A stretch of DNA of 64,000 nucleotides from the NCBI GenBank assembly GCA_948465565.1, contig CAOJXR010000002.1:87139-151138 (forward strand), written 5' to 3'. The translations under genes and the position numbers were made by a program. Below the pieces are notes generated by a model, which was given only the letters and a program-made list of their open reading frames with translations, searched no databases and had not been told where the DNA came from. The number at the start of each line of letters is the position of its first letter. Positions within the stretch are counted from its first letter, which is position 1. This document shows positions 11,210-12,455 of the stretch, piece by piece. The stretch comes from an uncultured Clostridium sp. (GTDB lineage Bacteria; Bacillota; Clostridia; TANB77; CAG-508).

Positions 11210-11360
11210 TATTATGCGCATTTTATCAATTAATTCTATCAGGATTTAATTTAATAAAATGCGCTAGGGGTTATTAGGGGCATCCCCTAATCATATAGAG
11301 GAACTTGTTTCCTCTAGTATGTTATAGCAATAATTGCTAGTGAGTATTTAGCATGAATAT
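11210..11360. promoter_or_regulatory. Candidate oriT: a dense cluster of inverted repeats upstream of the relaxase gene
   Basis: Inverted repeats and palindromes include tatgcgcatttta/taaaatgcgcta, ttaggggcatcccctaa, tagaggaacttgtttcctcta, tagcaataattgcta and agcataatgct. Confidence 0.3.
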
Positions 11361-11474
11361 ATGGCAATTGGAAATAGCATAATGCTTCGTAGCATAGCTT
11401 TAAAATAATATTAAAAAGAGGGAAAATTTTATGAATAATAAAATAAGTTTAGAATTCAAGGAAGGTACATATTT

Positions 11475-12455
11475 ATGAGTTATGCAATAATTAGAAATGA
11501 AAAATATGTTATGAACCAACTTAACATTGTATTTAGGCATAACGAAAGGAAAAATACATCTTATTCAAATAAAGATATTAATAAAAATTCCAGTAAACTT
11601 AATTATTCCATTAAAAAATGTAATACTCCTTATAGTAAGATATTTAATCAATTAAGAAATGATTATAATTTAAAAGGAAAAATCAAAAATATTTCAAATG
11701 TTGCCTGTGAATATATAATAACTGCTAGTCCTGAATTTTTTGACGTACTTAGTGATAGTGAAATCAAAAGATTTTTTGAAACTTCTTATAAATTTGTATG
11801 TGGTTTTAAAAATTTAGGAGAACAATATATTATTTCAGCTAAAGTTCACATGGATGAATCTACTCCACACATGCATTTAGTGTATCTTCCTGTAGTTCAT
11901 ACTGTTGATAAAAAAACTGGTACAAATATTGATAAATTGTGTTGTTCTGATTTTTGGAAAGGTAAAAATAGCTATAAGGTTCTTCAGGATAATTTTTATA
12001 AATATTTAACTAAATCCGGATTTGATTTAGAACGAGGAAATTCCGATGATAATAAGCATATAAAAATAGAAGATTTAAAAAGATTGACTAATTATGAATT
12101 ACAAAAATATGAAAAAGAAACTATAAAATTGGAACAAGAAATTGATACTCAAAATATTGATATATTAAAACAGGACTATAAACGTGTAATAAAAAAATTT
12201 AATACTTTGGCAAAACAATATACAAAAATAAAAGTGATAAACGATACAAATGTAAAAAACTATGAAATTTCAAAAGAAAAAAATAAATTGTTGGAAAATG
12301 AAAATAAGAACTTGAAAAAAATTATTATTTCTCTAAAAGATTATATAAATAAATCCTTAAATTGTGTGAGTTTGTTATTTGATTTTCCTATAGATAAACT
12401 TAAAAATATTGTAAATACTTTTTTTAAAAGTAGTAATCAAAATTTAGAAAAATAA
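11475..12455 (+). CDS. mob: MobV-family (Mob_Pre, pMV158 MobM-like) relaxase
   Basis: N-terminus MSYAIIRNEKY..FRHNERKNTSYSNKDIN and motif III KVHMDESTPHMHLVYLPV (HxDE..PHxH); AAGGAAGG ribosome-binding site. Confidence 0.8.
   Translation: MSYAIIRNEKYVMNQLNIVFRHNERKNTSYSNKDINKNSSKLNYSIKKCNTPYSKIFNQLRNDYNLKGKIKNISNVACEYIITASPEFFDVLSDSEIKRFFETSYKFVCGFKNLGEQYIISAKVHMDESTPHMHLVYLPVVHTVDKKTGTNIDKLCCSDFWKGKNSYKVLQDNFYKYLTKSGFDLERGNSDDNKHIKIEDLKRLTNYELQKYEKETIKLEQEIDTQNIDILKQDYKRVIKKFNTLAKQYTKIKVINDTNVKNYEISKEKNKLLENENKNLKKIIISLKDYINKSLNCVSLLFDFPIDKLKNIVNTFFKSSNQNLEK

Follow-up and report, generated by a model that had tools for sequence, protein, structure and literature searches.

A sigK-intervening element with a MobV relaxase and a predicted pMV158-type origin of transfer in an uncultured Clostridium

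Elements that interrupt a sporulation gene and restore it upon excision have been described in several spore-formers. In the skin elements of Bacillus subtilis and Clostridioides difficile and in phage phiS63 of Clostridium perfringens, sigK is interrupted by a prophage or prophage-like element with a large serine recombinase at the junction, and excision restores the gene (PMC5025042, PMC3442830). The gin element in gerE of Bacillus cereus is non-viral; it likewise interrupts a sporulation gene, its excision requires a serine recombinase and a directionality factor, and its transfer mechanism is unknown according to its authors, the word 'relaxase' being absent from their paper (PMC5595907). 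Here, we analysed a stretch of 64,000 nucleotides from an uncultured Clostridium sp. (contig CAOJXR010000002.1 of assembly GCA_948465565.1; hereafter the window), in which sigK is split by an element of 8,848 bp. It resembles the skin elements and phiS63 in the interrupted gene, in the large serine recombinase at the junction and in the restoration of sigK, which we read in frame from the sequence. It differs from them in that it lacks phage structural genes and carries a relaxase and an origin of transfer (oriT), and from gin in that a transfer module can be identified.

Among mobilizable elements, Tn4451/Tn4453 of C. perfringens and C. difficile are similar in gene content, by which we compare them rather than by sequence: they are small clostridial elements with a large serine recombinase (TnpX) and a MobV relaxase (TnpZ), and they are mobilized in trans from an upstream transfer site (PMC5704250). 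Tn4451 differs in its low-specificity insertion and in carrying catP, whereas the element in the window occupies a single sigK site and has no resistance gene. IMESag-rpsI of Streptococcus agalactiae shares the MobV relaxase, a three-repeat oriT upstream of it and the lack of a mating pore of its own (PMC5090054). It differs from the window element, which uses a large serine recombinase and sits inside a coding sequence that has to be restored for sporulation. The best-studied parallel for the transfer module itself is plasmid pMV158. Its oriT reads GCACACACTTTATGAATATAAAGTATAGTGTG/TTATACTTTA, with an inverted repeat (IR1) 5' of the nick, a bulged IR3 that extends IR1 and ends at the nick, an IR2 that spans the nick, and a repetition of the IR1 left arm after it (PMC3105389, PMC5863519); the nick lies at the 3' end of the right arm of IR3 (PMC5863519). 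The mapped nick cores are TAGTGTG/TTA for MobM of pMV158 and TAGTGCG/TTA for MobSag of IMESag-rpsI (PMC5090054).

Taken separately, each component is familiar from earlier work: MobV relaxases, oriTs of the pMV158 type, the pairing of a serine recombinase with MobV in one element (Tn4451) and the interruption of sigK by an element (PMC5704250, PMC5025042, PMC3442830). A relaxase-bearing sigK-intervening element was not found described in the portions of the literature covered by our search, and sigK and spores go unmentioned in a review of mobilizable elements. We consider it likely, with a probability of roughly 0.7, that positions 4430..13277 are an integrative mobilizable element in the sigK coding sequence, composed of a recombinase module and a MobV/oriT module and exported with the assistance of a helper.

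The MobV relaxase and its oriT-like module

A preliminary description of this DNA had assigned the open reading frame (ORF) at 11475..12455 (+) to the MobV relaxases. The ORF is present and contains all three peptide strings quoted from it, and the profile search against relaxase families, which had been named beforehand as a check, supports the assignment: Pfam Mob_Pre (PF01076) matched residues 1-202 with 139.4 bits at a cut-off of 25.5 (E = 1.7e-40), and the NCBIfam MobV equivalog (NF041497) scored 131.4 bits at a cut-off of 100, so that both curated thresholds are exceeded. The only solved structure that matched was the relaxase domain of pMV158 MobM (PDB 4lvi, E = 1.1e-24), where FRHNER of the window protein stands opposite FKHNER and VHMDESTPHMH opposite VHLDESTPHMH. 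Motif I (HxxR) is formed by H22-N-E-R25, opposite HNER of MobM, the numbering of His22 following from the 4lvi alignment and the removal of Met1. Motif III (HxDExxPHxH), the metal-binding motif pointed out in the preliminary description, is intact as H125-M-D-E-S-T-P-H132-M-H134. Across 13 relatives, motif I and residues His22, Arg25, His125, Asp127, Glu128, Pro131, His132 and His134 are invariant, and conservation reaches into the C-terminal third and up to the C-terminus. MobM itself cleaves DNA via a histidine and not a tyrosine (PMC5863519).

The relationship to MobM is a distant one, with 83 aligned residues identical over about 200 and a protein of 326 aa here versus 494 in pMV158. Nor did a search of PLSDB (tblastn) yield a close plasmid relative, the best match, in small B. 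cereus plasmids, being only 36% identical; the relaxase is therefore without a close plasmid source. Relatives with 60-74% identity, by comparison, occur in the thousands in a metagenome-derived protein collection.

Could the protein be a plasmid-recombination enzyme rather than a relaxase that serves transfer? The Pfam family is named after such a 'Pre' activity, and the protein would then perform site-specific recombination at the upstream site, for example in co-integrate formation, with no conjugative mobilization. However, the characterised members MobM, MobSag and TnpZ are DNA-mobilizing relaxases (PMC3105389, PMC5090054, PMC5704250), for which reason we regard a 'Pre' role as extremely improbable; the element moreover already has a dedicated recombinase.

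Five repeats had been named upstream of mobV, and all five are present within the 270 bp in front of the gene. Repeat 1 (GCGCATTTTA/TAAAATGCGC) lies at 11216-11229 and 11251-11264, the second and fourth are hairpins A and C (Table 1), the third (TAGAGGAA-CTTGT-TTCCTCTA, 11296-11316) is hairpin B and the fifth (AGCATAATGCT) lies at 11377-11387. As a single strand, the segment 11255-11345 folds into three hairpins with -17.4 kcal/mol, compared to -6.95 +/- 2.27 kcal/mol for shuffled sequences (z = -4.6), and the predicted extended hairpin at 11292-11321 ends exactly at G11321. The sequence around it reads CATA-TAGAGGAA-CTTGT-TTCCTCTA-G-TATG/TTATAGCAA, and the left arm of hairpin B is repeated 3' of the predicted nick. 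The pMV158 nick sequence, which the preliminary description did not find, does have a near-copy here: TAGTATG/TTA at 11315-11324 is one base off TAGTGTG/TTA and lies 153 nt before the mobV ATG on the same strand. From this homology we predict a nick between G11321 and T11322 on the + strand.

The likeness to pMV158 extends over the whole arrangement. In addition to the homologous relaxase domain with intact His22, HxxR and HxDExxPHxH, the oriT-like module lies just upstream on the coding strand, hairpin B corresponds to IR1, its basal extension corresponds to IR3 and ends at the predicted nick, a further repeat spans the nick, and the core deviates by the one base. The module differs in having two extra conserved hairpins (A and C), and it belongs to a chromosomal, integrative element and not to a rolling-circle plasmid.

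Is this arrangement a common feature of related relaxase loci? We collected 79 MobV loci from species-representative genomes, all of them metagenome-assembled genomes (MAGs) of uncultured gut Clostridia, several of which hold multiple copies of the relaxase family. Within 400 bp upstream of mobV the module was found in 47 of 78 upstream regions, at a distance of 95-165 nt from the gene (273 nt in one); where it was missing from this interval, a DUF3848 gene lay in between or the contig was cut. Its order is hairpin A (GGGGTTATTAGGGG nnn CCCCTAATCA), TCATAC, hairpin B and a nearly invariant CTAGTATGTTA. The stems of hairpin B vary among the loci (AGAGGAA/TTCCTCT, AGAACA/TGTTCT, AGAACACTTTT/AAAAGTGTTCT, AAGTTCTTTC/GAAAGTACTT), and hairpin C also changes and still pairs (AGCAA/TTGCT, AACAC/GTGTT, AGCAT/ATGCT, AGAAT/ATTCT). 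In an alignment of 27 distinct family sequences, 97.2% of the cells were paired and both sides changed in 11 of 20 pairs, a level reached by none of 500 column shuffles and compared to 40-49% paired in slid controls. Hairpin A (98% of cells paired, two-sided change in 4 of 7 pairs) and hairpin B with its extension (96.6%, 7 of 13 pairs) both co-vary. A weaker repeat across the nick, comparable to IR2 of pMV158, is 78% paired with three pairs showing two-sided change. Indeed, CTAGTATGTT is identical in 25 of the 27 sequences, and one family member carries CACAC...TAGTGTG/TTA, i.e. the exact pMV158 core, compensating for the CATAC...TAGTATG of the others.

A covariance model built on this alignment (R1) matched 71 times in the 79 related loci, with three exceptions always on the strand of mobV. 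In the window, its sole real match was the module upstream of mobV with 80 bits (E = 1.8e-18), the next best reaching 14 bits; most family members score within 72-94 bits. In two related loci (L012 5494-5576 and L013 5458-5540), the oriT-like module precedes mobV in the reverse orientation, on the strand opposite to the gene, which sets them apart from the other family members.

The view that the upstream region has the repeat architecture of a MobV oriT is thereby upheld for repeats 2, 3 and 4, which are conserved with co-varying stems. The flank 5' of hairpin A has no conserved column in alignment A2, and repeat 1 is without a counterpart in relatives; the same seems to hold for repeat 5, outside the aligned region and judged only by eye. 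The oriT call, once said to rest on repeat architecture only, now goes beyond it, because the site is conserved, relaxase-linked and structured and combines the three-repeat geometry with a pMV158-type nick core.

Hairpins in front of a gene can also be transcription signals, which might here end transcription of the RadC/DUF3846 gene, serve as an operator through which mobV is autoregulated, or both. A terminator scan flags hairpin B followed by GTATGTTATA, and the mob promoters of pMV158 overlap with its oriT, with MobM regulating its own synthesis (PMC5863519), wherefore a regulatory role is to be expected in addition. A purely transcriptional role, by contrast, appears very unlikely to us, because conservation is highest in the unpaired core CTAGTATGTTA and the stems are variable, the opposite of what a terminator would show. 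Furthermore, this core matches two mapped MobV nick sites, the tail after hairpin B is not a T-run, and the module stays with mobV despite an intervening DUF3848 gene.

Architecture and mosaic ancestry of the element

Both junctions of the element can be read directly (Table 1). Joined in frame, the two sigK halves encode a SigK of 232 aa, the crossover within the shared AATT being ambiguous by 1-4 bases. The last codons of the recombinase run over the junction, with the stop codon beyond it. We predict the junction of the circular form (attP) as GCAAACGAAATT joined to ATCACATGTTGG, which can also be written as GCAAACGAAATT joined to ATCACATGTTGGAAAACGG, and the restored chromosomal junction (attB) as GAAAATGCAATT joined to TTAATGTTCTTCAG.

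Table 1. Features of the sigK-intervening element and its oriT-like module (window positions)
Feature	Position	Strand	Basis and remarks
sigK 3' half, begins LMFFRNSKK...	4079..4429	-	NCBIfam SigK models, profile positions 115-227
sigK-intervening element, 8,848 bp	4430..13277		junctions read directly
Large serine recombinase, 566 aa	4426..6126	-	Pfam Resolvase + Recombinase + Zn_ribbon_recom; PHROG integrase 1e-104
Small acidic ORF, 95-101 aa, pI 5.6, upstream of recombinase	6270..6575	-	no Pfam/PHROG match; this element only
Small ORF, 72 aa, weak helix-turn-helix (HTH)	6677..6895	+	Pfam HTH_3 21.1 bits, cut-off 23; one relative, in L031
Small HTH regulator	7017..7298	+	Pfam HTH_3; common to 12 related MobV loci
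Stand-alone Spo0A C-terminal-domain-like protein, 121 aa	7350..7715	-	Pfam Spo0A_C 7.7e-8, above cut-off; 39 of 79 related loci
HTH (Cro/C1-type) regulator, 238 aa, backbone	8558..9274	+	Pfam HTH_3; 48 of 79 related loci
RadC-like JAB + DUF3846 protein, backbone	9642..11039	+	Pfam DUF3846 1e-23, RadC 1.6e-6
oriT-like module	11255..11337	+	covariance model match
Hairpin A (ATTAGGGG CAT CCCCTAAT)	11273..11291	+	second repeat; fold; family pairing
Hairpin B + basal extension	11292..11321	+	3' end = predicted nick; fold; family pairing
Nick core TAGTATG/TTA	11315..11324	+	nick predicted at G11321/T11322, by homology
Hairpin C (TAGCAA TAA TTGCTA)	11325..11339	+	fourth repeat, 3' of predicted nick; fold
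mobV relaxase gene, 326 aa	11475..12455	+	Pfam Mob_Pre, NCBIfam MobV, PDB 4lvi
Small basic ORF, 57 aa, pI 9.0	12508..12681	+	family searches negative; kept in sigK-interrupting elements
Double-HTH regulator, right end of element	12763..13272	-	Pfam HTH_3, two stretches; 33-50% identical copies in other sigK elements
sigK 5' half, ends ...RCIENAI	13278..13625	-	NCBIfam SigK, profile positions 9-117

Profile searches found no mating-pore or coupling-protein families (type IV secretion system, T4SS) among the ORFs of the element. Matches to PHROGs were limited to regulators, the integrase and, on the RadC/DUF3846 protein, a single family of unknown function, with no phage structural, packaging or lysis genes among them, upon which we rejected a phage origin. 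The interruption of sigK, the large serine recombinase, the MobV relaxase with its oriT and the lack of mating-pore genes all fit an integrative mobilizable element, as had been proposed. By its architecture, the element appears to be mobilizable and not a prophage remnant, because it combines an intact MobV relaxase with a conserved pMV158-type oriT. The host is an endospore former, as SpoVAC/AD/AEB, YunB, SipL and YabG are encoded in the window. A strict sigE/sigK promoter consensus had no match within the element, which is weak negative evidence, and sigma-70-like matches were fewer than in shuffled sequence.

The element is a mosaic of a sigK-specific recombinase module and a mobilizable backbone. 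The backbone, i.e. the Spo0A_C-like protein, an HTH regulator, the RadC/DUF3846 protein, the oriT and MobV, recurs in about 40 of the 79 related loci, none of which is in sigK. In the closest backbone relative found (relaxase 71% and RadC/DUF3846 protein 64% identical), it adjoins rpmA-rplU and is accompanied by a DUF3848 gene, a 93-aa ORF and a tyrosine integrase. A tyrosine integrase and a site beside a ribosomal-protein gene are a typical arrangement of integrative mobilizable elements, and it is also in these two respects that this relative resembles IMESag-rpsI. As to attachment sites other than sigK, for which a survey of related elements was suggested in the preliminary description, backbone relatives do exist outside sigK, the closest one found being at rpmA, and a close copy of the whole element elsewhere was not found. 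The stand-alone Spo0A_C-like protein is carried by 39 MobV elements, most of which lie outside sporulation genes; a receiver-less, element-borne Spo0A-like DNA-binding domain could read Spo0A boxes or interfere with them.

All 14 recombinase relatives examined (65-80% identical) directly adjoin a sigK 3' half, with the sigK 5' half 5-11.5 kb away where the contig allows this to be seen, and the same sigK codons are interrupted in the seven elements with a readable 5' junction. The double-HTH gene and the 57-aa ORF recur at the far end of other sigK elements; copies of the latter, 54-66% identical, occupy the same end of eight of them, beside the double-HTH gene. We speculate that this ORF is a candidate for an excision co-factor (recombination directionality factor) or a regulator. 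The recombinase identity does not track that of sigK (79% vs 44% for L089, 71% vs 89% for L102), and the module has therefore moved between divergent hosts.

A motif of the form ATCACATGT[T/A]GGAAA occurs at 13277..13263 (-), at the inner edge of the right junction, and again at 6152..6138 (-), just upstream of the recombinase start codon. At the right junction it is kept in other sigK elements as [AT]TCAC[AG]T[AG]TTGGAAA, and L092 and L094 show a similar ATATCACAT..GGAAAGG (or ..AAGAAAGG) before the recombinase. This repetition may reflect binding of the recombinase to its own leader.

The cargo of the other sigK elements is diverse. L089 and L090 carry a VirD4-type coupling protein, a Replic_Relax protein and a second (tyrosine) integrase, L092 has weak FtsK-like and Rep-like matches and an IS200 transposase, and L102 contains an ECF sigma factor; conjugation-type gene regions lie at L089 1-1099, L090 2169-4201 and L092 4241-6578. 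Tentatively, and as a possibility that we hold for less than an even bet, the sigK-specific recombinase modules of uncultured gut Clostridia could be a shared landing system for unrelated mobilization modules, through which the sigK switch spreads between species by conjugation. Examples would be MobV with its oriT here, the VirD4-type and Replic_Relax proteins in L089 and L090, and possibly the FtsK-like and Rep-like proteins in L092. If true, excision would also be needed in vegetative cells, under a second regulatory input.

Proposed transfer cycle and the population picture

How would such an element move? In the first module, the recombinase, together with a small ORF and the double-HTH regulator at the other end of the element, would recombine the ends at the short core AATT within the codons for ...CIENAI/LMFF..., which would yield an intact SigK and a circular element. 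In the second module, by analogy with MobM, the relaxase would bind hairpin B and its basal extension, melt its base and cut the + strand of the circular form at 5'-TAGTATG/TTA-3', with His22 as the probable nucleophile and His125, Glu128, His132 and His134 as likely metal ligands. Because the element is without a mating pore of its own, the nicked strand would have to leave with the aid of a conjugative element in the same cell that supplies both coupling protein and mating pore. Once in the recipient, the circle would be inserted into sigK by the recombinase. Transfer along this route would presuppose excision outside the mother cell and a suitable helper.

Several observations weigh against this reading. 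Motif II of the relaxase is N43-Y44-S-I instead of the expected NY(D/E)L, its N and Y being invariant in the family, and hairpin B is separated from the predicted nick by 5-6 nt, versus 8 nt in pMV158. The pMV158 nick 13-mer with at most two mismatches occurs twice in the window against 2.4 expected occurrences, which alone is not significant; what gives the match weight is that it sits at the 3' end of a conserved hairpin and does not vary within the family. We saw no helper element in the window, and neither MobV nor the oriT was found in the other sigK-interrupting elements examined. At the population level, all 23 contigs read carried the same sigK site with the same neighbours, and neither a second site nor a second host with a close copy came to light. 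The two separate halves of sigK are present on 272 and 280 contigs, and the exact reconstituted SigK is absent from the protein collection, in which a one-residue variant allele would be missed. Split halves without an intact SigK fit vertical inheritance of a fixed element as well as they fit an active one, and the population data as a whole agree equally well with a mobilization module that is no longer used.

The most serious alternative follows from these data: the element would be a domesticated relic, once mobilizable but by now fixed as a developmental switch. It would be inherited vertically, leave sigK in the terminal mother cell alone and keep its relaxase and oriT without transfer. 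Indeed, the element appears to be fixed or nearly so in its host species. The exact relaxase is found on 74 contigs and close variants on 63 and 59, and the same 8,848-bp element recurs in other metagenome assemblies with 99.6-100% identity between samples. Furthermore, excision of skinCd is confined to the mother cell by a directionality factor under the control of sigE and SpoIIID (PMC5025042). However, the relaxase is full length and retains every invariant residue of the family, including those of its C-terminal region, and the score of the oriT falls inside the range of most family members. The two mobV haplotypes seen differ by three synonymous and three non-synonymous changes, corresponding to dN 0.004 vs dS 0.017, though from only six differences. 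The recombinase clade, in addition, has clearly moved between hosts with divergent sigK. The intact relaxase and oriT and the mobility of both modules argue against decay, and we therefore consider a relic unlikely, though by a good deal the least unlikely of the alternatives, and prefer an integrative mobilizable element that may still be transferred at present.

No direct trace of a recent transfer of the element was found. Neither the attP junction nor the oriT sequence occurs in viral contigs, and short contigs of 9.6-9.8 kb, considered as a possible circular form, turned out to be integrated copies and not circles. One contig (L111), in which the element lies beside spoIIGA, was considered as a second host and rejected, since the 5' part of its 'sigK' is best matched by SigE. 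Its similarity to the window stops abruptly inside the region common to sigE and sigK. At 9035-9780 of this JGI contig, spoIIGA and the 5' part of sigE run into the sigK 5' half, with the point of fusion in the stretch that both sigma genes have in common. The contig is most likely a sigE/sigK assembly chimera, although a real recombinant, known from this one contig, is conceivable.

Other features of the window and wider meaning

Outside the element, the window contains a YabG peptidase ORF at 54996..55577 (-), whose only 193 aa correspond to 94-274 of the 280 profile positions; the start codon is GTG, and a stop codon lies upstream. In Clostridium botulinum, yabG is interrupted by an element (PMC10747680). 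Three stretches have a higher G+C content (0.36-0.45 against a background of 0.25-0.30), at 46676..47869 (+), 38915..39460 (+) and 3698..4012 (-). Their genes are a 397-aa ORF without a Pfam match, a GNAT acetyltransferase and a 104-aa ORF without a family beside the sigK 3' half, and they may be foreign. A gene similar to PD-(D/E)XK family transposases (57256..58155, -; Pfam PDDEXK_2, 5e-31) lies amid housekeeping genes.

Elements that interrupt sporulation genes have so far been described as prophages or prophage remnants, with gin as the sole non-viral case, whose route of spread is unknown (PMC5595907). A sigK element with an apparently intact mobilization module would offer a concrete, testable route by which developmental switches may pass between spore-formers. 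It also raises a regulatory question, as one recombinase would have to excise the element on two kinds of occasion: in the mother cell, from which the element has no future, and ahead of a transfer. Beyond the single locus, the analysis delimits a large, uncharacterised MobV subfamily in gut Clostridia, with thousands of metagenomic relatives and an oriT that is predicted to the nucleotide.

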